IMG/VR virus record: IMGVR_UViG_3300045988_092011
Length of the DNA: 16,052 nt
Strand: one strand, 5' to 3'
DNA from: a virus
Lineage: Duplodnaviria > Heunggongvirae > Uroviricota > Caudoviricetes
Made by a program: the position numbers and the translations under genes. The notes under the pieces are model-generated. The model saw only the letters and a list, made by a program, of their open reading frames with translations, was not told the origin of the DNA and ran no database searches. Shown here piece by piece: positions 20 through 16,052 of the stretch. The stretch's first letter is position 1. Every line of letters begins with the position of its first letter.

Positions 20-1102
20 TCATAGTCCAATACGGCGTAATGCGTTTCCCTCTGGGCAGGAGCTTAGCCAATCCAAGTTCTTGGGAACAAGGTCAGGGAT
101 TTCACGTAATGCAAGTGCTGCGCCAACAGCGAGAGATTCGAATCTAACTCGAGGTGTAGATTTTGCAGTAATAGTTTTCTTGAATCCTGCTGGGAAATAG
201 TTATCAACAAAAGATAGAACATTAGCAAACTCTTGTTTCATTGAGTTTTGTTTAGTTTCGTCTATATCTCGATTTTCTAACATATAGTCATTTAGAAAAT
301 CCCGTACGGAATGATCAAAGTTCTTGTACTTATCTAAGTAGGCAAAGAATCTTAATGTAAATTCTAACCGTTCATCTCGTTTTTCTTTAGTCTGAGATAA
401 AGGTGCTAATTCTTTAAATTTAGGTATTGTTGAGCATGGCTTAATAACCTGTGTATATAAATTTGTTGAACCAAGTTCTGATCCTTTACGGACTTCCATA
501 TCTTTCAATATATCGCTGCCAGAGTTAATACGTTCAAAAAGATCTCTACGGGTTTCTTCATTGCATTTAGAACTCAATTCTATAACGCGGACAGGAATTC
601 TCATGAAACGACGTTGACGTGATAATGGTAAATCTTGGAATTTGAAACCATTAAGGGCGTCTAAAGATTTCAGATCTTGTAAAACTAATTCATTTTGGAT
701 AAAAGCGTGTATAGTCCTAACTCGCTGTGAGCCATCAACAATCTCAATTCGCCCATCTAAATCGGGATCTTCGGAGAGAACATCTGCTGTAAATATATAT
801 GGTATAGGAAAACCCAAAATCAAAGACTCTATCAATCTTGATTGTCTTTTTTCACTCCAAACAAAATCCCTTTGATAATCAGGAACAAAGAGTTCGTTAG
901 TATCATCCTCTAATCCGCTATGATACTTATTAACTAATAACTCAACGGTAAATTCTTTGGTCTCAAAATCCACATCCTTTTGCTCAGCACGAATTTGCTC
1001 TTCAGCGTTTTGCTTTATCACCTCTAGCTGAGCAAGCAACTCTGCTCTTTTCTTGGCATTATCTTCATTTTCTAGTTGAGATTTTAAATCAATAATGTCC
1101 AT
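20..1102 (-). CDS. DUF262 / ParB-like nuclease-domain protein (GmrS-like N-terminal domain family); candidate anti-phage defence protein
   Basis: 366-aa ORF; start trimmed from TTG at 1120 to ATG at 1102 (MDIIDLK...), which is preceded by AGGGAG with a 6-nt spacer. Motifs PDYQRDFVW...LILGFPIPYIF...IVDGSQRVRTI match the DUF262 hallmark (QR..W and DGQQR-like). About 25-33% GC in the body versus 55-60% in the flanking phage genes. Sits in the old/tin slot beside cos. Confidence 0.75.
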   Translation of the reverse strand: MDIIDLKSQLENEDNAKKRAELLAQLEVIKQNAEEQIRAEQKDVDFETKEFTVELLVNKYHSGLEDDTNELFVPDYQRDFVWSEKRQSRLIESLILGFPIPYIFTADVLSEDPDLDGRIEIVDGSQRVRTIHAFIQNELVLQDLKSLDALNGFKFQDLPLSRQRRFMRIPVRVIELSSKCNEETRRDLFERINSGSDILKDMEVRKGSELGSTNLYTQVIKPCSTIPKFKELAPLSQTKEKRDERLEFTLRFFAYLDKYKNFDHSVRDFLNDYMLENRDIDETKQNSMKQEFANVLSFVDNYFPAGFKKTITAKSTPRVRFESLAVGAALALREIPDLVPKNLDWLSSCPEGNALRRIGL

Positions 1103-1287
1103 GTCTAGCTCCCTTAACAAGTGTTAAAAATTGAAGCGGATAGCATACCGCATAGATCATGAAAAATGCCATCATGTGCATGGATTTGCATGCGTCAGAA
1201 GTCGCTTTTATTGTTAGTTATCACTAGCGATGGTGTGCTCTTGGAGTGTTCATGCAACTGCATTAAAAACGCCCCATGAAGCGGGCG

Positions 1288-1306
1288 GGCGAGGCGGGGA
1301 AAGCAC
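1288..1306 (+). other. cos: cos site: P2-type 19-nt cohesive-end sequence GGCGAGGCGGGGAAAGCAC
   Basis: The exact 19-mer I recall as the P2 cohesive end is present in a GC-rich non-coding region, at the expected position beyond the 3' end of Q. Confidence 0.7.
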
Positions 1307-1448
1307 TGCGCGCTGGCGGTGGTGCTGATTTTATTTTTTCAGCGTCTCAGCGCGTCGTAATGGCGTTTAGATTGTGCGCCGAGGCGTTGGTGTGTCTGCG
1401 GGCTGTTTTGTGCGGTGGTGAGCGTGTGAGGGCATGATGACGGGGTGT

Positions 1449-1470
1449 AAAAAAGCCGCCCGCAGGCGGC
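1449..1470 (-). terminator. Rho-independent terminator of the P-Q late operon
   Basis: On the minus strand: 6-bp GC stem (1455-1460 with 1465-1470), 4-nt loop, then TTTTTT (plus-strand A-tract 1449-1454). The hairpin starts 5 nt after the Q stop codon. Confidence 0.6.
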
Positions 1471-1475
1471 GATGT

Positions 1476-2510
1476 TCAGCCGTTGTCAGTGTCCAGTGAG
1501 TAGTTTTTAAAGCGGATGACCTCCTGGCCGAGCCAGCCGTTTATTTCCCGAATCCTGTCCTGTAACGGGATTAGCTCATTGCGGACAAAGACCTTTGCCA
1601 CTTTCTCAATATCGCCCAGTGACCCGACGTTCTCCGGCTTGCCGCCCATCAACTGAAAGGGGATGCGGTGCGCGTCCAGCAGGTCAGCGGCGCTGGCTTT
1701 TTTGATATTAAAAAAATCGTCCTTCGTCGCCACTTCACTGAGGGGGATAATTTTAATGCCGTCGGCTTTCCCCTGCGGGGCATAGAGAAACAGATTTTTA
1801 AAGTTATTGCGGCCTTTCGACTTAACCATGTTTTCGCGAAGCATTTCGATATCGTTGCGATCCTGCACGGCATCGGTGACGTACATGATGTATCCGGCAT
1901 GTGCGCCGTTTTCGTAATACTTGCGGCGGAACAGCGTGGCCGACTCATTCAGCCAGGCAGAGTTAAGGGCGCTGAGATATTCCGGCAGGCCGTACAGCTC
2001 CTGATTGATATCCGGCTCCAGCAGGTGAAACACGGAGCCGGGCGCGAAGGCTGTCGGCTCGTTGAAGGACGGCACCCACCAGTAAACATCCTCCTCCATG
2101 CCACGGCGGGTATATTTTGCCGGCGAGGTTTCCAGCCTGATAACCTTACCGGTGGTGCTGTAACGCTTTTCCAGAAACGCATTACCGAACACCAGAAAAT
2201 CCAGCACAAAGCGGCTGAAATCCTGTTGAGAAAGCCACGGATGCGGGATAAATGTCGAGGCCAGAATATTGCGTTTAACGTAAATCGGTGAGCTGTGATG
2301 CACGGCAGCACGCAGGCTTTTCGCCAGACCGGTAAAGCTGACCGGTGGCTCATACCATCTGCCGTTACTGATGCATTCGACGTAATCCAGAATGTCACGG
2401 CGGTCGAGTACCGGCACCGGCTCACCAAAGGTGAATGCCTCCATTTTCGGGGCGCTGGCGGTCATTTTTTTTGCCGCAGGTTGCGGTGTTTTCCCTTTTT
2501 TCTTGCTCAT
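1476..2510 (-). CDS. Q: portal protein (P2 gpQ-like)
   Basis: 344 aa, N-terminus MSKKKGKTPQPAAKK; length and position match P2 Q. Its ATG overlaps the stop of P (ATGA). Confidence 0.93.
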   Translation of the reverse strand: MSKKKGKTPQPAAKKMTASAPKMEAFTFGEPVPVLDRRDILDYVECISNGRWYEPPVSFTGLAKSLRAAVHHSSPIYVKRNILASTFIPHPWLSQQDFSRFVLDFLVFGNAFLEKRYSTTGKVIRLETSPAKYTRRGMEEDVYWWVPSFNEPTAFAPGSVFHLLEPDINQELYGLPEYLSALNSAWLNESATLFRRKYYENGAHAGYIMYVTDAVQDRNDIEMLRENMVKSKGRNNFKNLFLYAPQGKADGIKIIPLSEVATKDDFFNIKKASAADLLDAHRIPFQLMGGKPENVGSLGDIEKVAKVFVRNELIPLQDRIREINGWLGQEVIRFKNYSLDTDNG

Positions 2511-4282
2511 CAGTAAAACTCCAGAATGGTGGATGTCAGCGGGGTGCTGATACCGGCGGTGAGTGGCTCATTTAACAGGGCGTGCATGGTCGCCCAGGCG
2601 AGGTCGGCGTGGCTGGCTTCCTCGCTGCGGCTGGCCTCATAGGTGGCACTGCGTCCGCTGCTGGTCATGGTCTTGCGGATAGCCATAAACGAGCTGGTGA
2701 TGTCGGTGGCGCTGACGTCATATTCCAGACAGCCACGGCGGATAACGTCTTTTGCCTTGAGCACCATTGCGGTTTTCATTTCCGGTGTGTAGCGGATATC
2801 GCGCGCGGCGGGATAGAACGAGCGCACGAGCTGGAACACGCCGACACCGAGGCCGGTGGCATCAATACCGATGTATTCGACGTTGTATTTTTCGGTGAGT
2901 TTGCGGATGGATTCCGCCTGAGTGGCAAAGTCCATGCCTTTCCACTGGTGACGCTCAAGTATTCTGAATTTGCCACCGGCCACCACCGGCGGTGCCAGCA
3001 CCACGCATCCGGCGCTGTCGCCACGGTGTGACGGGTCGTAACCAATCCATACCGGGCGGGAGCCGAACGGATTCGCGGCAAACGGCGCATAGTCTTCCCA
3101 TTCTTCCAGCGTGTCGACCATGCAGCGTTGCAGCTCCTCGAACGGGAATACCGACGCCTTGTCGTCAACAAATTCACACATGAACAGGTTTTTAAAATCG
3201 TCGGCGCTGTTTTCGCGTTTGAGCTGTTCAATGTCGAACAGCGTGCAGCCGCCTTTCAGGGCGTCCTCAATGGTGACAATCTGCCGCCACTGACCGTCCG
3301 CACAGAGAAGCCCACCGGAAAGGGCGTTATGACTGACGTCGATTTCCACGCGTTCGGCGGCGCTGGCGCGTCCCCGGTTGAACAGTTCACCGGACCAGAA
3401 CGGGTAGGCGTCGTGCGCCAGCGTGGACGGGGTGGAGAAATAGGTCGAGCGCAGGTGACTCTGTGAGGCCATACCTGATGCCACCTTACGCAGTACCTGA
3501 AAATTCGGGATCCAGAAAATCTCGTCGACGTACAGGTCGCCGTTATGGCTCTGCGCGGTGTTGGAGTTGGTGCCGAGAAAAATCAGTTTTGCGCCGTTAT
3601 TGCCCAGGACAATCGGGTCACCGGTCAGGTCAACGTCAACCAGCCGGGCAAAGGCGATGATGTATTCGCGGAACACATACGCCTGCGTTTTACTGGCCGA
3701 CAGAAAAATCTGGTTATGGCCGGTTTTCAGGGCGCGCAGCAGCGCTTCGCGGGAAAAATAAAACGTTGCGCCAATCTGGCGGGATTTCAGGATATCGCGG
3801 ATGCGGTGCTCAAGCCCGGCGCGATACCAGTGCAACTGATAGTCGAAAGACTGCTCAAAGAAAATCTGCTCCAGCTTTTCGATGGCCTCGTCACTGAAAA
3901 AATTCTTTTTCGGTTTGCGCCGCCCGTCTTTGTTGCGGTTAGCAACGTTCGGATTAAGGTCTGCCTCGTTGCCGGTCTGACTGTAACGGTTGACCCGTGC
4001 CAGTCGTTCAATCTGGCGTCCGAGCAGGTCAATTTCCTTGAAGTCACCGCCGGTTTTCTGCGGTTTGATGATGAGCTGGGTCAGTCGCGCTTCCAGACTC
4101 ATTTCGACACGGCTGATGGGGGCAACGCTGTCCCAGCCGTCGCGCTGTTTCCAGCTCTGCACCGTCGGGCGTTTCATCTGCAACATGGCGGCAATCTGCG
4201 GCACGGAAAACCCCTGCCAGTACAGCAGCGCCGCCTGACGACGCGGGTCGTGTAAAAGAGTGGTGTCTGTGGTGATGGTCAT
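2510..4282 (-). CDS. P: terminase large subunit / ATPase (P2 gpP-like)
   Basis: ORF track gives 600 aa; trimmed to the second ATG (MTITTDTTLLHDP...), preceded by GAGG, giving 590 aa, which matches my recollection of P2 P. Divergent from O. Confidence 0.9.
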   Translation of the reverse strand: MTITTDTTLLHDPRRQAALLYWQGFSVPQIAAMLQMKRPTVQSWKQRDGWDSVAPISRVEMSLEARLTQLIIKPQKTGGDFKEIDLLGRQIERLARVNRYSQTGNEADLNPNVANRNKDGRRKPKKNFFSDEAIEKLEQIFFEQSFDYQLHWYRAGLEHRIRDILKSRQIGATFYFSREALLRALKTGHNQIFLSASKTQAYVFREYIIAFARLVDVDLTGDPIVLGNNGAKLIFLGTNSNTAQSHNGDLYVDEIFWIPNFQVLRKVASGMASQSHLRSTYFSTPSTLAHDAYPFWSGELFNRGRASAAERVEIDVSHNALSGGLLCADGQWRQIVTIEDALKGGCTLFDIEQLKRENSADDFKNLFMCEFVDDKASVFPFEELQRCMVDTLEEWEDYAPFAANPFGSRPVWIGYDPSHRGDSAGCVVLAPPVVAGGKFRILERHQWKGMDFATQAESIRKLTEKYNVEYIGIDATGLGVGVFQLVRSFYPAARDIRYTPEMKTAMVLKAKDVIRRGCLEYDVSATDITSSFMAIRKTMTSSGRSATYEASRSEEASHADLAWATMHALLNEPLTAGISTPLTSTILEFY

Positions 4283-4455
4283 GAATACCTCGCCGTGATG
4301 AATACACGGCAAGGCTACTGAGTCGTGCCCTGCGATTCGCTAAGGTGCTGTTGTGTCAGTGATAAGCCATCCGGGACTGATGGCGGAGGATGCGCATCGT
4401 CGGGAAACTGATGCCGACATGTGACTCCTCTAATCACTATTCAGGACTCCTGACA
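4283..4455. promoter_or_regulatory. divergent P/O intergenic region, expected site of the late promoters for the P-Q and O-onward operons
   Basis: A 173-bp non-coding gap between divergently oriented P and O. In P2 this region carries Ogr-activated late promoters, but I found no exact TGT-N12-ACA element, so the assignment is positional only. Confidence 0.4.
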
Positions 4456-5310
4456 ATGGCAAAAAAAGCATCAAAATTCTTTCGTATCGGCGTTGAGGGT
4501 GACACCTGTGACGGGCGTGTCATCAGTGCGCAGGATATTCAGGAAATGGCCGAAACCTTTGACCCGCGAGTCTATGGTTGCCGCATTAACCTGGAACATC
4601 TGCGCGGCATCCTGCCTGACGGTATTTTTAAGCGTTATGGCGATGTGGTCGAACTGAAGGCCGAAAAGATTGACGATGATTCGGCGCTGAAAGGCAAATG
4701 GGCGCTGTTTGCGAAAATCACCCCGACCGATGACCTTATCGCGATGAACAAGGCCGCGCAGAAGGTCTATACCTCAATGGAAATTCAGCCGAACTTTGCC
4801 AATACCGGCAAATGTTATCTGGTGGGTCTGGCCGTCACCGATGACCCGGCAAGCCTCGGCACGGAATACCTGGAATTCTGCCGCACGGCAAAACACAACC
4901 CCCTGAACCGCTTCAAATTAAGCCCTGAAAACCTGATTTCAGTGGCAACGCCTGTTGAGCTGGAATTTGAAGACCTGCCTGAAACCGTGTTCACCGCCCT
5001 GACCGAAAAGGTGAAATCCATTTTTGGCCGCAAACAGGCCAGCGATGACGCCCGTCTGAATGACGTGCATGAAGCGGTGACCGCTGTCGCTGAACATGTG
5101 CAGGAAAAACTGAGCGCCACTGAGCAGCGCCTCGCTGAGATGGAAACTGCCTTTTCCGCTCTTAAGCAGGAGGTGACTGACAGGGCGGATGAAACCAGCC
5201 AGGCATTCACCCGCCTGAAAAACAGTCTCGACAGCACCGAAAGCCTGACCCAGCAGCGCCGCAGCAAGGCCACCGGCGGTGGCGGTGACGCCCTGATGAC
5301 GAACTGCTGA
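4456..5310 (+). CDS. O: capsid scaffolding protein (P2 gpO-like)
   Basis: ORF trimmed to ATG at 4456 (MAKKASKFFRIGVEGDTCDG...), giving 284 aa; AGGA lies 9 nt upstream. Matches P2 O in length and sequence. Confidence 0.9.
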   Translation: MAKKASKFFRIGVEGDTCDGRVISAQDIQEMAETFDPRVYGCRINLEHLRGILPDGIFKRYGDVVELKAEKIDDDSALKGKWALFAKITPTDDLIAMNKAAQKVYTSMEIQPNFANTGKCYLVGLAVTDDPASLGTEYLEFCRTAKHNPLNRFKLSPENLISVATPVELEFEDLPETVFTALTEKVKSIFGRKQASDDARLNDVHEAVTAVAEHVQEKLSATEQRLAEMETAFSALKQEVTDRADETSQAFTRLKNSLDSTESLTQQRRSKATGGGGDALMTNC

Positions 5311-5368
5311 CCGGCGTCAGCCAGTCCGGGCAAACCTTCACGATTAACCCTTAATTTCAGGAAAAACT

Positions 5369-6445: not shown

Positions 6446-7189
6446 ATGACGAGTCCCGCACAGCGCCACATGATGCGGGTCTCGGCAGCGATGGCCGCGC
6501 AGCGGGAAGCCGCCCCGCTGCGACATGCAACTGTCTATGAGCAGATGCTGGTTAAGCTCGCCGCAGACCAGCGCACACTGAAAGCAATTTATTCAAAAGA
6601 GCTGAAGGCCGCGAAAAAACGCGAACTGCTGCCGTTCTGGTTGCCGTGGGTGAACGGCGTGCTGGAGCAGGGCAAAGGTGCACAGGATGACATTCTGATG
6701 ACGGTCATGCTGTGGCGTCTGGATACCGGCGATATTGCCGGTGCGCTGGAGATTGCCCGTTATGCCCTGAAGTACGGTCTGACCATGCCGGGGAAACACC
6801 GCCGCACCCCGCCGTACATGTTCACCGAGGAGGTGGCGCTTGCGGCCATGCGCGCTCACGCTGCCGGTGAGTCTGTGGATACCCGCCTGCTGACGGACAC
6901 CCTCGAACTGACCGCCACGGCTGACATGCCTGATGAAGTGCGCGCAAAGCTGCACAAAATCACCGGTCTGTTTCTGCGTGACGGTGGTGATGCCGCCGGT
7001 GCGCTGGCACACCTGCAACGTGCGACACAGCTCGACTGTCAGGCAGGCGTCAAAAAAGAGATTGAACGACTGGAGCGGGAGCTGAAACCGAAGCCGGAGC
7101 CGCAGCCAAAAGCGGCCACCCGCGCCCCGCGTAAGACCCGGAGCGTGACACCGGCAAAACGTGGACGCCCGAAAAAGAAAGCCAGTTAA
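6446..7189 (+). CDS. M: terminase small (endonuclease) subunit (P2 gpM-like)
   Basis: 247 aa, starts MTSPAQRHMMRV, GGGAG 8 nt upstream; begins 4 nt after the N stop. Confidence 0.9.
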   Translation: MTSPAQRHMMRVSAAMAAQREAAPLRHATVYEQMLVKLAADQRTLKAIYSKELKAAKKRELLPFWLPWVNGVLEQGKGAQDDILMTVMLWRLDTGDIAGALEIARYALKYGLTMPGKHRRTPPYMFTEEVALAAMRAHAAGESVDTRLLTDTLELTATADMPDEVRAKLHKITGLFLRDGGDAAGALAHLQRATQLDCQAGVKKEIERLERELKPKPEPQPKAATRAPRKTRSVTPAKRGRPKKKAS

Positions 7190-7288
7190 CAACCGAATGC
7201 GCCCCGCGCCAGGGCGGCACGCCGGTCAGTGAGGGTGAATCACCTGACACTGCACCGGCGTCCACCGCCCGACTTTTCAGAGGTAGTC

Positions 7289-7798
7289 ATGATGACGCTG
7301 ATTATTCCGCGAAAGGAGGCTCCCGTGTCCGGTGAGGGTACGGTGGTCATCCCGCAACCGGCAGGCGACGAGCCGGTGATTAAAAACACGTTCTTTTTTC
7401 CCGATATCGACCCGAAGCGCGTCCGGGAACGTATGCGCCTTGAGCAGACCGTCGCCCCCGCCCGTCTGCGTGAGGCCATCAAGTCAGGCATGGCTGAAAC
7501 AAATGCGGAGCTGTACGAGTACCGCGAACAGAAAATTGCCGCCGGTTTTACGCGTCTGGCGGACGTTCCGGCGGACGACATCGACGGTGAAAGCATCAAA
7601 GTTTTTTACTACGAGCGCGCTGTGTGTGCGATGGCGACCGCGTCGCTTTATGAGCGTTACCGCGGCGTGGATGCCAGTGCCAAGGGCGACAAGAAGGCCG
7701 ACAGCATTGACAGCACCATTGATGAGCTGTGGCGGGATATGCGCTGGGCGGTGGCGCGCATCCAGGACAAGCCGCGCTGCATCGTGAGTCAAATCTGA
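7289..7798 (+). CDS. L: head completion/stabilisation protein (P2 gpL-like)
   Basis: ORF track starts at GTG 7229; trimmed to ATG 7289 (MMTLIIPRKEAP...), with GAGG 8 nt upstream, giving 169 aa as in P2 L. Confidence 0.88.
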   Translation: MMTLIIPRKEAPVSGEGTVVIPQPAGDEPVIKNTFFFPDIDPKRVRERMRLEQTVAPARLREAIKSGMAETNAELYEYREQKIAAGFTRLADVPADDIDGESIKVFYYERAVCAMATASLYERYRGVDASAKGDKKADSIDSTIDELWRDMRWAVARIQDKPRCIVSQI

Positions 7799-8001
7799 TG
7801 AAGACCTTTGCGCTACAGGGCGACACGCTCGACGCCATTTGTGTCCGGTATTACGGGCGCACTGAGGGCGTGGTTGAGACCGTGCTCGCCGCAAATCCGG
7901 GACTGGCTGAACTGGGTGCGGTGCTGCCACACGGCACCGCCGTCGAACTGCCCGACGTTCAGACCGCGCCCGTGGCTGAAACTGTCAATCTGTGGGAGTA
8001 A
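7798..8001 (+). CDS. X: tail protein X (P2 gpX-like)
   Basis: 67-aa product MKTFALQGDTLDAICVRYYGRTEG...; its ATG overlaps the L stop (TGATG). Falls below the ORF-track length cutoff as a stand-alone ORF, so it was recovered from inside the 7729..8001 ORF. Confidence 0.85.
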   Translation: MKTFALQGDTLDAICVRYYGRTEGVVETVLAANPGLAELGAVLPHGTAVELPDVQTAPVAETVNLWE

Positions 8002-8004
8002 CGC

Positions 8005-8286
8005 ATGACAGCAGAAGAAAAAAGCGTCCTGTCGCTTTTCATGATTGGGGTGCTGATTGTTGTCGGCAAGGTGCTTGCCGGTGGTGAACCCATCACCCCG
8101 CGTCTGTTTATCGGGCGCATGTTGCTTGGTGGTTTTGTCTCGATGGTTGCCGGTGTTGTTCTGGTGCAGTTTCCTGACCTGTCACTGCCTGCGGTGTGCG
8201 GCATTGGCTCCATGCTGGGTATCGCCGGTTATCAGGTGATTGAGATTGCCATTCAGCGCCGCTTTAAGGGCAGGGGGAAACCGTAA
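8005..8286 (+). CDS. Y: holin (P2 gpY-like)
   Basis: 93 aa with hydrophobic membrane-spanning segments and a charged C-terminus; GGGAG upstream; first gene of the lysis cassette. Confidence 0.9.
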   Translation: MTAEEKSVLSLFMIGVLIVVGKVLAGGEPITPRLFIGRMLLGGFVSMVAGVVLVQFPDLSLPAVCGIGSMLGIAGYQVIEIAIQRRFKGRGKP

Positions 8287-8783
8287 TGCCGGTAATTAAC
8301 ACACATCAGAATATCGCCGCCTTTCTCGACATGCTGGCCGTGTCCGAAGGGACGGCGAATCATCCGCTGACGAAAAACCGGGGCTATGACGTGATAGTCA
8401 CCGGACTGGACGGGAAGCCGGAAATTTTCACCGACTACAGTGACCACCCGTTCGCGTATGGCCGACCGGCGAAGGTGTTTAACCGTCGCGGTGAAAAATC
8501 CACGGCCTCCGGTCGCTATCAGCAGCTTTACCTGTTCTGGCCGCATTACCGCAAACAGCTTGCCCTGCCGGATTTCAGTCCGTTGTCACAGGACAGACTC
8601 GCCATTCAGTTGATCCGCGAACGCGGTGCACTGGATGACATCCGGGAGGGACGCATTGAGCGCGCCATTTCACGCTGTCGCAATATCTGGGCGTCCCTGC
8701 CGGGTGCCGGTTACGGTCAGCGTGAGCATTCACTGGAAAAACTGGTCACCGTCTGGCGTACCGCTGGCGGCGTACCGGCTTAA
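8286..8783 (+). CDS. K: endolysin / lysozyme (P2 gpK-like)
   Basis: 165 aa; its ATG overlaps the Y stop (TAATG); position and length match P2 K. Confidence 0.92.
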   Translation: MPVINTHQNIAAFLDMLAVSEGTANHPLTKNRGYDVIVTGLDGKPEIFTDYSDHPFAYGRPAKVFNRRGEKSTASGRYQQLYLFWPHYRKQLALPDFSPLSQDRLAIQLIRERGALDDIREGRIERAISRCRNIWASLPGAGYGQREHSLEKLVTVWRTAGGVPA

Positions 8784-8797
8784 ACGGAGTAAACACC

Positions 8798-9223
8798 ATG
8801 AAGAAATTATCCCTTTCACTGATGCTGAACGTGTCGCTGGCGCTGATGCTGGCACTGTCCCTGATTTACCCGCAGAGCGTGGCCGTCAGTTTTGTCGCTG
8901 CCTGGGCGATTCTGGTGACGGTTATCTGTGTGGTTGCCGGTGGTGTCGGCGTGTATGCCACTGAGTATGTGCTGGAACGCTACGGGCGGGAGCTGCCGCC
9001 GGAATCGCTGGCCGTGAAGATTGTCACGTCGCTGTTTTTGCAGCCGGTGCCGTGGCGCAGACGGGCGGCGGCTCTGGTAGTGGTGGTGGCGACGTTTATC
9101 TCGCTGGTCGCTGCCGGGTGGATTTTTACCGCGCTGATTTATCTTGTGGTGTCGCTGTTTTTCCGGCTGATACGTAAAGCCTGTCGTCAGCGTCTTGAGG
9201 GGCGGGAACTATGTCAAAGCTGA
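8798..9223 (+). CDS. lysA: lysis regulatory membrane protein LysA
   Basis: 141 aa, strongly hydrophobic with several predicted transmembrane segments; ACGGAG 8 nt upstream; matches P2 lysA in position and length. Confidence 0.8.
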   Translation: MKKLSLSLMLNVSLALMLALSLIYPQSVAVSFVAAWAILVTVICVVAGGVGVYATEYVLERYGRELPPESLAVKIVTSLFLQPVPWRRRAAALVVVVATFISLVAAGWIFTALIYLVVSLFFRLIRKACRQRLEGRELCQS

Positions 9224-9636
9224 TGATTGTGCTGGTCGTGTTGCTATCGCTGGCGGTGGCCGGTCTGTTTCTGGCGAAGCATGAAAACGCCAGGCTGCGC
9301 GTCTCGCTGGACAGGGCGAACAATGTCGCCAGCGGGCAGCAGACGACCATCACCATGCTGAAAAATCAGCTTCATGTTGCGCTCACCAGGGCAGACAAAA
9401 ACGAGCTGGCGCAGGTGGCACTGCGTCAGGAACTGGAGAACGCCGCGAAGCGTGAAGCACAGCGCGAGAAAACCATCACGAGGTTACTTAATGAAAACGA
9501 AGATTTTCGCCGCTGGTACGGTGCTGACCTGCCTGATGCTGTGCGCCGGTTGCACCAGCGCCCCGCCTGCACCGACGCCAGTGATTGTCGCCAACGCCTG
9601 CCCGAAAGTGAGTCTTTGCCCGATGCCGGGCAGTGA
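9211..9636 (+). CDS. lysB: LysB, Rz-like inner-membrane spanin
   Basis: 141 aa, N-terminal membrane anchor (MSKLMIVLVVLLSLAVAGLF) followed by a charged helical periplasmic region; overlaps the lysA 3' end. Confidence 0.8.
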   Translation: MSKLMIVLVVLLSLAVAGLFLAKHENARLRVSLDRANNVASGQQTTITMLKNQLHVALTRADKNELAQVALRQELENAAKREAQREKTITRLLNENEDFRRWYGADLPDAVRRLHQRPACTDASDCRQRLPESESLPDAGQ

Positions 9637-9781
9637 CCCGGAGACGAACGGCGATTTAAGTGCCGATATCCGGCAGCTTGAGAACGCGCTGGCACGCTGT
9701 GCCAGCCAGGTAAAAATGATTAAACACTGTCAGGACGAAAACGATGCTCAAACCCGACAGCCTGCGCAGGGCGCTGACTGA
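9491..9781 (+). CDS. lysC: LysC, Rz1-like outer-membrane lipoprotein spanin, embedded in the +1 frame of lysB
   Basis: 96-aa product MKTKIFAAGTVLTCLMLCAGCTSAPPAPTP with a signal peptide, lipobox-like Cys and a Pro-rich region; GAGG 8 nt upstream; starts inside lysB and runs past its stop into R. Confidence 0.75.
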   Translation: MKTKIFAAGTVLTCLMLCAGCTSAPPAPTPVIVANACPKVSLCPMPGSDPETNGDLSADIRQLENALARCASQVKMIKHCQDENDAQTRQPAQGAD

Positions 9782-10211
9782 TGCCGTCACGGTGCTGAAA
9801 ACCAGTCCAGAGATGCTTCGGATATTCGTGGATAACGGGAGTATTGCCTCCACGCTGGCGACGTCGCTGTCGTTCGAAAAGCGTTACACGCTCAATGTGA
9901 TTGTGACCGACTTTACCGGTGATTTTGACCTGCTCATCGTGCCGGTGCTGGCGTGGCTGCGGGAAAATCAGCCCGACATCATGACCACCGACGAAGGTCA
10001 GAAAAAAGGTTTCACGTTTTATGCAGACATCAACAATGACAGCAGCTTTGATATCAGCATCAGCCTGATGCTGACCGAGCGCACGCTGGTCAGTGAGGTT
10101 GACGGCGCGCTGCATGTGAAGAATATCCCGGAACCTTCGCCGCCGGAGCCGGTTACCCGCCCGATGGAGCTGTATATCAATGGCGAACTGGTGAGCAAGT
10201 GGGATGAATGA
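9744..10211 (+). CDS. R: tail completion protein (P2 gpR-like)
   Basis: 155 aa; position and length match P2 R; overlaps the S start. Confidence 0.88.
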   Translation: MLKPDSLRRALTDAVTVLKTSPEMLRIFVDNGSIASTLATSLSFEKRYTLNVIVTDFTGDFDLLIVPVLAWLRENQPDIMTTDEGQKKGFTFYADINNDSSFDISISLMLTERTLVSEVDGALHVKNIPEPSPPEPVTRPMELYINGELVSKWDE

Positions 10212-10656: not shown

Positions 10657-10722
10657 TTGTGCCATTCCCGACACCTCATCGTTACATTGCCGCCGGTATG
10701 ACCCGGCGGCATCCTTCCCGTT
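10657..10722 (+). promoter_or_regulatory. S-V intergenic region with a GC-rich hairpin; expected location of the late promoter for the V operon
   Basis: 66-bp gap containing a perfect 8-bp inverted repeat GCCGCCGG / CCGGCGGC (10689-10696 and 10703-10710, 6-nt loop) with no T-tract after it. P2 has a late promoter ahead of V, but no exact Ogr-site consensus was found. Confidence 0.35.
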
Positions 10723-13148: not shown

Positions 13149-15398
13149 ATGAGCACAAAATTCAGAACCGTTATCACCACTGCCGGTGCAGCAAAGCTGG
13201 CAGCGGCAACCGCACCGGGAGGGCGGAAGGTCAACATTACCACGATGGCCGTCGGGGATGGCGGTGGTAAATTGCCTGTCCCGGATGCCGGACAGACCGG
13301 GCTTATCCATGAAGTCTGGCGACATGCGCTGAACAAAATCAGCCAGGACAAACGAAACAGTAATTATATTATCGCAGAGCTGGTTATTCCGCCGGAGGTG
13401 GGCGGTTTCTGGATGCGTGAGCTTGGCCTGTACGATGATGCGGGAACGTTAATTGCTGTGGCGAACATGGCCGAAAGTTATAAGCCTGCCCTTGCCGAAG
13501 GCTCAGGGCGTTCGCAGACCTGCCGCATGGTCATCATCGTCAGCAGTGTGGCCTCAGTGGAGCTGACCATTGACACCACAACGGTGATGGCGACGCAGGA
13601 TTACGTTGATGACAAAATTGCAGAGCACGAACAGTCACGACGTCACCCGGACGCCTCGCTGACCGCAAAAGGTTTTACTCAGTTAAGCAGTGCGACCAAC
13701 AGCACGTCTGAAACACTGGCCGCAACGCCGAAAGCGGTAAAGGCCGCTTATGATCTTGCTAACGGGAAATATACCGCGCAGGATGCCACCACAGCGCGAA
13801 AAGGCCTTGTCCAGCTCAGTAGCGCCACCAATAGCGATTCTGAAACGCTCGCCGCAACGCCGAAAGCGGTAAAGGCAGCATATGACCTTGCTAACGGGAA
13901 ATACACTGCACAGGACGCCACCACAACGCGAAAAGGCCTTGTTCAGCTCAGTAGCGCCACCAACAGCGATTCTGAAACGCTTGCGGCAACGCCAAAGGCG
14001 GTTAAGACAGCATATGACCTTGCTAACGGGAAATACACTGCACAGGATGCCACCACGGCGCGAAAAGGTCTTGTCCAGCTCAGTAGCGCCACCAACAGTG
14101 ATTCTGAAACGCAGGCTGCAACGCCAAAGGCGGTGAAGTCTGCCTATGACAATGCTGAAAAACGTCTTCAGAAAGATCAGAACGGTGCGGATATCCCTGA
14201 TAAAGAACGCTTCCTGAGTAACATTAATGTTTACAGCAAAGGTGAAGTGGATAAGAAAAAGGGAATGCGAAAGTATTCGTTTGCAGCCCCTGCAAATGTC
14301 GTTGCCGGGAAGTGGTACCCCGTTATCTTTCGCCGTGCTGCCAGCTTTTCAGGAGAAATGGCATCCCGCGTTGTTATTTCCACTGGTTGTTATAACGGCG
14401 ATTATGTAATGAATAACTGCGAGTTTAATGGCATGGTTATGCCCGGAGGCTGGACTGATCGTGGTTCATATGCGGCAGGTTATTTCTGGACGTATCAGAC
14501 TAATGAGCGTTCAATCCATTCCATTGTTACAAGCCTGAAAGATGATGATGTATGTAGTGTTTTTTATGTTGAAGCCAGAGCTTTCCCTGTACAAATTCTT
14601 GCAGAGGAAGGGCTAACGGTTATTGTTCCGACAGAGGATTATGTCGTCGGTCAAACGACATATAAGTGGGGGGCAACTAATCCCGCTACAGAAAGCACGA
14701 ACGCACAGGCTATTCTGGATTTTAAAAATGGGCGCGGTTATTACTGCTCACATCCATTTATTTCCAGCCTTTCAGGAAATGCTGCAACAGCAACGAAGTT
14801 AGCGAATGCAAGAAATATTAATGGTGTCAGATTTGATGGTTCTGCCGATATAAATATTAATACACTGGTATCCAGAAACCGTGTTACTGCATTAGGTGGG
14901 AGCTCAAAGGGTACACCAGGTATTCAGATGTATGAGGCATACAACAATGGCTACCCAACAGCCTATGGTAATGTGCTTCATCTCACTGGCGTAACTGCAG
15001 TAGGAGAGGGTGAGTTACTTATTGGCTGGAGTGGAACCAGCGGTGCTCATGCTCCGGCATATATTCGCTCCCGACGAGATACCACAGATGCTAACTGGTC
15101 TGGATGGGCGCAACTATATACAACTGCTCATAAACCCTCAGCGGGAGATGTTGGTGCATACACCAAAGCTGAGTCAGATTCACGTTATGTGAGAGACATG
15201 CGGCTGGGCGGTGCATCTACATATAAACCAGCAAATAATGGTATTACATGGACGCATCAGGCTCCGTCAGGTTGCGTATATACCGGCATTATTGTTCAGG
15301 ATACCGGCTCAAACTCTGCCGATAACATTGGTGGCGTATATTACAGACCGGTGCAGAAATACATTAACGGGACATGGTATAACGTGGCGCAGGTATAA
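13149..15398 (+). CDS. H: tail fibre protein (P2 gpH-like) with an internal tandem repeat array and a divergent AT-rich distal (receptor-binding) region
   Basis: 749 aa; GAGG upstream. N-terminus is P2 H-like, the middle carries 44-aa repeats, and the C-terminal region contains a GNAATATKLANARNINGVRFDGSADI motif that I recall from Mu S / lambda Stf-type side tail fibres. Confidence 0.92.
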   Translation: MSTKFRTVITTAGAAKLAAATAPGGRKVNITTMAVGDGGGKLPVPDAGQTGLIHEVWRHALNKISQDKRNSNYIIAELVIPPEVGGFWMRELGLYDDAGTLIAVANMAESYKPALAEGSGRSQTCRMVIIVSSVASVELTIDTTTVMATQDYVDDKIAEHEQSRRHPDASLTAKGFTQLSSATNSTSETLAATPKAVKAAYDLANGKYTAQDATTARKGLVQLSSATNSDSETLAATPKAVKAAYDLANGKYTAQDATTTRKGLVQLSSATNSDSETLAATPKAVKTAYDLANGKYTAQDATTARKGLVQLSSATNSDSETQAATPKAVKSAYDNAEKRLQKDQNGADIPDKERFLSNINVYSKGEVDKKKGMRKYSFAAPANVVAGKWYPVIFRRAASFSGEMASRVVISTGCYNGDYVMNNCEFNGMVMPGGWTDRGSYAAGYFWTYQTNERSIHSIVTSLKDDDVCSVFYVEARAFPVQILAEEGLTVIVPTEDYVVGQTTYKWGATNPATESTNAQAILDFKNGRGYYCSHPFISSLSGNAATATKLANARNINGVRFDGSADININTLVSRNRVTALGGSSKGTPGIQMYEAYNNGYPTAYGNVLHLTGVTAVGEGELLIGWSGTSGAHAPAYIRSRRDTTDANWSGWAQLYTTAHKPSAGDVGAYTKAESDSRYVRDMRLGGASTYKPANNGITWTHQAPSGCVYTGIIVQDTGSNSADNIGGVYYRPVQKYINGTWYNVAQV
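13668..14150 (+). repeat. in-frame tandem repeat, 132-bp unit (44 aa), about 3.7 copies inside H
   Basis: Copies at 13668-13799, 13800-13931, 13932-14063 and a partial copy 14064 to about 14150. Each encodes KGLVQLSSATNSDSETLAATPKAVKAAYDLANGKYTAQDATTAR with small variations. Copies 2 and 3 differ at about 11 of 132 nt, mostly synonymous. Confidence 0.9.
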
Positions 15399-15401
15399 TT
15401 T

Positions 15402-15929
15402 ATGCAGCATTTAAAAAATATTACGGCGGGTAATCCAAAAACGGTTGAACAATATCAATTGACAAAGGACTTTGATGTTGTCTGGTTTTTTTCAGAAGAT
15501 GGTAAGAACTGGTACGAAGAACAAAAGTATTTTGCTGATGACACGATAAAAATAGCGTACGACAAAGATAATATTATCCGCTATGTGGAAAAGGATGTGA
15601 CAGCTATAAGACCGGATGGATTAAGTGTGGTTGAAGTGGCGGATATTACTGCTAACCGACGGGCGGACATTTCAGGGAACTGGATGTTTAAGGATGGCAA
15701 AGTGATTAAACGCATTTATACGGCAGAGGAATTGCAGCAGCAGGCAGAAAACCGGAAAGCCAGACTTCTTGCAGATGCTGAATCCGTGATTTTGCCGCTG
15801 GAGCGCGCTGTCAGGTTGAACATGGCAACAGAGGAGGAGCGCACACGGCTGGAGGCTTGGGAACGCTACAGCGTTGTGGTCAGTCGTGTGGATCCTGCAA
15901 ATCCTGAATGGCCGGAAATGCCGCAATAA
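15402..15929 (+). CDS. G: tail fibre assembly chaperone (P2 gpG-like, Tfa family)
   Basis: 175 aa immediately downstream of H; AT-rich 5' two-thirds and a more GC-rich 3' third; length matches P2 G. Confidence 0.88.
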
Positions 15930-15964
15930 GTTGTATGAACTCTGGTGTGAGCTTACATATCTAT

Positions 15965-16004
15965 GGCACAGAGTAAAGCCTAATCTGACAGTCCGCTCTG
16001 TGCC
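15965..16004. other. 9-bp inverted repeat (GGCACAGAG ... CTCTGTGCC) with a 22-nt spacer, downstream of G
   Basis: Perfect 9-bp arms at 15965-15973 and 15996-16004; no T-tract follows, so it is not a classic intrinsic terminator. Function unknown. Confidence 0.3.
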
Positions 16005-16052
16005 AGGAGCGGAAGTTGCCAAGAGAACTCTTGCAAAGGTATGATAACGTAG

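Follow-up and report, generated by a model that had tools for sequence, protein, structure and literature searches.

The cohesive-end (cos) site of P2-type phages is a textbook element and, in its published context, already known. Like the cos of phage lambda (cosN/cosB), it combines staggered nicks and 5' cohesive ends with a recognition sequence on one side, whereas the overhang is 12 nt long in lambda and 19 nt in P2-type sites, and the sequence and the terminase small subunit of the two are unrelated. P2 reportedly packages from monomeric circles. In the curated P2 record (NC_001895), bases 1-19 ('cosL; left cohesive end') and bases 33575-33593 ('cosR') both read GGCGAGGCGGGGAAAGCAC, and satellite P4 (NC_001609) carries exactly these letters as its bases 1-19. 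Phage 186 (NC_001317) opens with GGCGTGGCGGGGAAAGCAT, which its record labels 'cos; top strand cut at 5' end and bottom strand cut at 3' end'. A passage of PMC9594776, citing Ziermann & Calendar 1990, gives '55 bp' for the cos sequence shared by P2 and P4, and the same paper reports that longer cos flanks raise cosmid transduction >1000-fold. A P2 lysogen from which cos has been deleted no longer produces phage (PMC9942202). The P2 genes tin (30684-31445) and old (31620-33380), both on the minus strand, lie between A/orf91 and cosR, and a cos-adjacent hotspot between gpA and gpQ has been described (Rousset et al. 2022, PMC9122126; Vassallo et al. 2022; PMC9519451).

Here we analysed a stretch of 16,052 nt, referred to in full as the window. 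Sequence comparison leads us to conclude that the following 19 bases are, almost certainly, the cohesive-end site of a P2-type (Peduovirus) E. coli prophage:

1288-1306, plus strand: 19-nt cohesive-end sequence (cosN equivalent); an exact, unique match, equal to P2 cosL/cosR and to the P4 end

The window holds GGCGAGGCGGGGAAAGCAC as a single copy. No further match to it was found on either strand of the window when up to 3 mismatches were allowed, and the number expected from shuffled sequence was 0.01. The first-pass annotation had taken this 19-mer for the P2 cohesive end and had stated that it occurs once; the curated cos annotations of P2, P4 and fiAA91-ss bear out the identification, and the search confirms the single occurrence. 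When the site was compared with the cos regions of both P2 and 186, it proved identical to the former and different from the latter at 2 bases.

The likeness to P2 extends beyond the 19-mer. The two sites share 29 of the 30 bases to the left of the nick and the TGCGCGC to the right of the 19-mer, their terminases are 99% identical, and both sites occupy the same place relative to tQ/Q and to a leftward-transcribed accessory gene. The window departs from P2 in having a DUF262 gene where P2 has old/tin, in a C-to-A change at 1269, and in the sequence more than ~40 bp left of the nick, which has diverged with the exception of a TGCAT pair. P4 and P4-like elements share the identical 19-mer, the core of ~56 bp and a TGCAT-N5-TGCAT at the same distance from the nick, but in these elements the conserved arm follows psu and variable cargo lies to the right of cos, where the window has the P2 late region. 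The 186 site resembles that of the window in its architecture and its annotated nick geometry, whereas several changes in the core, added to those in the 19-mer, set 186 apart and leave the window with the P2 type. Compared with the published gpA-gpQ hotspot, the locus differs in nothing of kind: cargo stands beside cos in the same three-gene arrangement, of which the window has the first gene alone, truncated by a join.

Alignment places the end of the virion genome at this site. In a blastn comparison with the first 16 kb of P2, the alignment starts at window position 1288, opposite P2 base 1, and continues from there at 97.6% identity across 9371 nt. When the segment 1101-1480 was compared with phage records by megablast, at least seven linear records were found to open at the base equivalent to 1288 (S164, HQ103, vB_YpM_476A, fiAA91-ss, P24A7b, R18C and L-413C), and the fiAA91-ss record annotates that base as cosL. 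The earlier proposal that the site marks the virion end is therefore well supported by the start of the linear P2 alignment and by the starts of these phage records, and the end of this virus would be expected there too.

For the nick geometry of the window site we relied on the annotation of the 186 record. Following excision and replication, the P2-type terminase (gpP plus gpM) would recognise a cos region of ~60-140 bp (about 1174-1313) and would nick the DNA with a stagger of 19 bp, just before 1288 on the top strand and just after 1306 on the bottom. Melting of the 19 bp between the nicks would leave a protruding 5' overhang of 19 nt on each end, and the linear virion DNA would be packaged with Q on the left and the cargo slot, which here houses the DUF262 gene, on the right. 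After injection, the cohesive ends would anneal and be ligated. That these cut positions and this packaging act in the present prophage we infer from the biology of P2, 186 and P4. The attP site lies elsewhere, between ogr and int, so that cos is internal in the prophage, where it would adjoin the variable gpA-gpQ 'old/tin' hotspot. The cos site thereby orients the prophage map, showing annotators where the linear virion genome would start and stop, and the element is expected to be capable of mobilisation and of serving as a helper for P4-like satellites with the same core.

The genes to the right of cos are those of a P2-type late region, beginning with Q, P, O, N, M and L and reaching as far as the H and G genes of the tail fibre. 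The features that bear on packaging are:

1455-1470, minus strand: tQ-type intrinsic terminator of the P-Q operon, from scan and fold (P2 tQ lies at 160-181)
1476-2510, minus strand: Q, portal protein (Pfam Phage_portal), 98.8% identical to P2 gpQ
2510-4282, minus strand: P, terminase large (ATPase) subunit (Pfam Terminase_6N, Terminase_6C and Terminase_5), 99.7% identical to P2 gpP
6446-7189, plus strand: M, terminase small/endonuclease subunit (Pfam Phage_term_smal), 98.8% identical to P2 gpM

The tQ-type hairpin adjoins the Q stop at 1476, and the succession of tQ and then Q directly right of cos is the layout of P2. The products gpP, gpM, gpQ, gpN and gpO share 98.6-99.7% identity with the P2 proteins and contain no internal stops, and the cognate terminase pair, gpP and gpM, is encoded at full length in the same window as the cos site. 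No ORF of 60 aa or longer was found in 1121-1475, and the GC content, ~35% within the cargo gene, increases to 54-58% near the cos site. These ORF and GC data, together with the hairpin, agree with the initial description of a non-coding, GC-rich block between the Q terminator and an AT-rich gene. A search of the whole window for Rfam families at gathering score returned none. From base 60 to base 16052, the window matches, at 100% identity, a prophage in the genome of E. coli O169:H41 strain 2014EL-1345-2 (CP024223), an element of ~32 kb that is complete from int (beside cpxP) to ogr (beside fieF) and shows no obvious deletion.

To compare cos regions across the family, the right and left ends of P2, fiAA91-ss, 186 and P4 were joined and set, anchored at the nick, against the window and eleven E. 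coli prophages and satellites; such nick-anchored comparisons were run on 9 and on 16 cos regions. Among these sequences the conserved block spans about -30 to +26 around the nick, and in the window it contains:

1258-1313, no strand assigned: conserved cos core of ~56 bp, consisting of CTGCATTAAAAACGCCCCATGAAGCGGGCG, the 19-mer and TGCGCGC, from the nick-anchored comparison
1270-1287, no strand assigned: GC-rich dyad (CGCCC..GGGCG) abutting the top-strand nick, from a scan for terminator-like sequences

The core of the window agrees with the consensus of 8-15 other cos regions at all positions but 1269, where the window has A and the consensus C. The equivalent base is G in a prophage that carries Dcm cargo, so 1269 is not invariant and tolerates change. 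In P4-like satellites in E. coli genomes, matches to the window are limited to the core. The size of the conserved block, ~56 bp, agrees with the '55 bp' of P2/P4 cos homology given in that passage of PMC9594776. The dyad is kept in P2, 186 and P4, and a TTTTT run follows it on the minus strand. When folded as RNA, it showed no stability beyond that of shuffled sequence (z about 0). We therefore dropped it as a back-up terminator or RNA hairpin, and regard it as a feature recognised in duplex DNA.

The conservation of the core and of the late genes also bears on other readings of the site. One is that the cos is genuine and P2-type by descent but a dead relic, in a prophage that is never packaged, so that it fixes no physical end. 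The window itself holds no evidence of activity and the core does carry one substitution, at 1269; P2-type prophages, moreover, are not SOS-inducible and many prophages are cryptic. Yet all the compared genes for head, terminase, lysis and tail functions keep their full length and share 98.6-99.7% identity with P2, no obvious deletion interrupts the identical CP024223 prophage between int and ogr, and apart from 1269 the cos core equals the consensus of the compared sequences, which makes a relic very improbable. A second reading would derive the cos from a P4-like satellite inserted beside the prophage, not from a P2-like phage. P4 does share the identical 19-mer and the 56-bp core, and the E. 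coli sequences that match in the core alone often prove to be P4-like elements. To the right of TGCGCGC, however, P2-type sequence continues for 9.4 kb (through tQ, Q and P and further) in place of P4 gop/cargo, the left flank is a cargo gene and not psu, and none of psu, delta, sid and alpha was identified among the genes of the window; we consider a satellite origin to have almost no chance of being right and reject it.

Equally far-fetched, and likewise rejected, is the reading of the 19-mer as part of a small coding gene with an incidental likeness to cos, for although an ATG-started ORF of 53 aa (1276-1437, plus strand) crosses the site, and its equivalent is annotated as 'hypothetical protein' in several deposited P2-like genomes, this ORF would be cut in each virion genome, the curated P2 record has cosL and non-coding sequence there, conservation peaks in the core, and in P4-like elements conservation ends after TGCGCGC, with the downstream part of the ORF replaced. 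The ORF is probably spurious, because it would be severed in virion DNA. We accordingly keep to a P2-type cos site in a P2-like prophage in what follows.

Left of the core, the comparison brought out two pairs of short repeats:

1253-1263, no strand assigned: proximal TGCA pair (TGCAACTGCAT), at -35 and -29 from the nick
1177-1191, no strand assigned: distal TGCAT pair, TGCATGGATTTGCAT (TGCAT-N5-TGCAT), at -111 and -101 from the nick and extending from -111 to -97

In the proximal pair, the TGCA at -29 is present in all 12 independent arms and that at -35 in 8 of the 12. Over -130 to -40 the left arms are 45-60% identical without gaps, which identifies them as diverged homologues and not as unrelated DNA. 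The distal pair is the best-kept island in this diverged arm, and the ~60 bp between it and the core vary rather little in length but show poor sequence conservation. Within -125 to -91, either TGCA-N5-7-TGCA or TGCATGCA occurs in 11 of 12 arms treated as independent, a count that none of 20000 shuffles reached. The pair is kept at the same distance whether the neighbouring cargo is old, DUF262, an R-M system, an OLD-like nuclease, DprA or P4 psu, and in the Dcm and SIR2 arms TGCATGCA stands in its place.

The conservation of the distal pair (1177-1191) makes it a candidate second recognition element, a further site at which the small subunit of the terminase, or else a host factor, may bind. 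By extension, the packaging signal of P2/P4-type elements could be bipartite, with the ~55-bp core complemented by a TGCAT-N5-TGCAT pair fixed at -111 to -97; this we put forward tentatively, as an idea more likely wrong than right. The >1000-fold effect of longer flanks on cosmid transduction (PMC9594776) fits a function outside the core but is no proof of one. If the signal were bipartite, the cargo slot would have its true inner limit at the distal pair, and cargo promoters beginning just past the pair would be explained. A sigma-70 consensus scan of 1103-1250 gave no convincing cargo promoter.

Where the slot begins was surveyed in 60 E. coli records, sampled at even intervals from the 2158 with a match to 1101-1480. 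In the P2-like prophages of this sample homology begins at 1244-1259, that is, 29-44 bp left of the nick, and in a smaller group, mostly prophages with cdt-type cargo, it begins at 1163-1175. A third group matches within ~1244-1315 only and consists of P4-like satellites or of P2-like prophages with extra cargo between cos and Q. Such cargo comprises ParA in CP109953 (locus positions 4035-5335) and the reverse transcriptase of retron Ec48 plus its effector in CP110511 (locus positions 2544-4783); both of these prophages also carry cargo on the usual side, and in some relatives the hotspot thus straddles cos. From the points at which homology starts, cos is the fixed point of the hotspot, and the border is the outer edge of the cos arm. 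The first-pass annotation, in which cos was itself the boundary of the accessory slot, was right that the site adjoins the slot, but the border lies at the left edge of the cos arm and not at the nick.

Two features occupy the window to the left of this arm:

60-1102, minus strand: DUF262/GmrSD_N (ParB-like) cargo gene (Pfam PF03235, 6e-26)
1-59, no strand assigned: foreign segment outside the prophage, ending at a chimeric or concatenation join at 59/60

The start codon of the DUF262 gene, at 1102 on the minus strand, is 186 nt left of cos, and the gene reads away from cos. In P2, the start of old is 195 nt from the 19-mer and has the same orientation, so the placement of the DUF262 gene in the old/tin position, already suggested from the sequence, holds in both distance and direction. 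The CP024223 prophage shows the fuller order A - Dcm - HEPN - DUF262 - cos - Q, with the cargo at locus positions 7167-10043. Its DUF262 protein, WP_000351260, is the authentic product of 380 aa, to which the window is 100% identical from base 60 on. Among otherwise syntenic prophages the content between A and cos/Q is variable, which is what marks a hotspot (gene A itself lies outside the window), and the same slot holds cdt, old/tin, an R-M system, an OLD-like nuclease, DprA, SIR2, ImmA or retrons in other prophages. The AT-rich gene left of cos therefore sits in a well-described, cos-adjacent defence hotspot of P2-like phages. The cargo of Dcm, HEPN_MAE_28990 and DUF262 at the gpA-gpQ hotspot is already catalogued: WP_000351260 (DUF262), WP_001697730 (Dcm) and WP_000373633 (HEPN_MAE_28990) are all in a supplementary table of Rousset et al. 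2022 (PMC9122126).

Among the PADLOC models, the DUF262 protein matched NsnA best (5e-54), followed by PD-T4-2_A (7e-34 / 5e-35), and its HEPN_MAE_28990 partner had no match at E<=0.001. Two known systems were ruled out. Menshen (NsnABC) does not fit, as the neighbour of the DUF262 gene encodes the HEPN_MAE_28990 protein and there is no NsnB ATPase; nor does a GmrSD type IV restriction enzyme, as Pfam found PF03235 alone in the DUF262 protein, with no C-terminal DUF1524 HNH nuclease domain. With no NsnB ATPase, a HEPN protein lacking a PADLOC match and no DUF1524, the locus is neither Menshen nor GmrSD. Its content, a sensor-like DUF262 protein, a nuclease-like HEPN protein and Dcm, suggests a candidate defence module. 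We found no record of a defence assay on the Dcm, HEPN and DUF262 arrangement.

The left edge of the window belongs to other DNA. Bases 1-59 were absent from 5,426 complete E. coli genomes and had no match in plasmids, GTDB species representatives or viral contigs, and a metagenome scan spanning the 59/60 junction found no match either. A rearranged copy of nearby sequence was also ruled out, in the forward, reverse, complement and reverse-complement senses. A metagenome scan by 28-mers found one contig matching 1-59, UEQL01002448 from human gut (43% GC), which encodes sugar-nucleotide and ATP-grasp enzymes; 59 of the 59 bases are identical to an internal stretch of this contig, and the two sequences diverge at once thereafter. 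The window is thus a join of two unrelated sequences at 59/60, which leaves the cos site unaffected, and annotators should treat its left 59 bases as lying outside the locus. The foreign bases supplant the last 33 codons of the DUF262 gene and leave 347 authentic codons at its start; as it reads in the window, the ORF therefore has an artefactual end (its last 13 codons and stop). An exact-protein look-up of this ORF (360 aa, ending at base 20) returned no record, which is consistent with an artefactual C-terminus.

Elsewhere in the window, the non-essential P2 orf30 (786 nt, between S and V) is absent at window 10659-10722, where blastn skips from P2 9369 to 10308 over just 64 window bases. 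The C-terminal part of the tail fibre gene H (13875-15343) has no blastn match to P2, and H encodes 749 aa in the window against 669 aa from the P2 coordinates. Identity to P2 is just 78.8% over the segment 15344-16013, which runs from the last part of H through the whole of G to 84 nt past it. The divergence across 13875-16013 indicates, as judged from these alignments, a swapped host-range module. Homology to P2 and to most E. coli relatives ends at 16005-16018, ~84 nt past G, and it is at window positions ~16013-16052 that the second P2 hotspot (Z/fun) begins. The Z/fun slot of the CP024223 prophage carries a hypothetical protein of 447 aa, WP_000257039.
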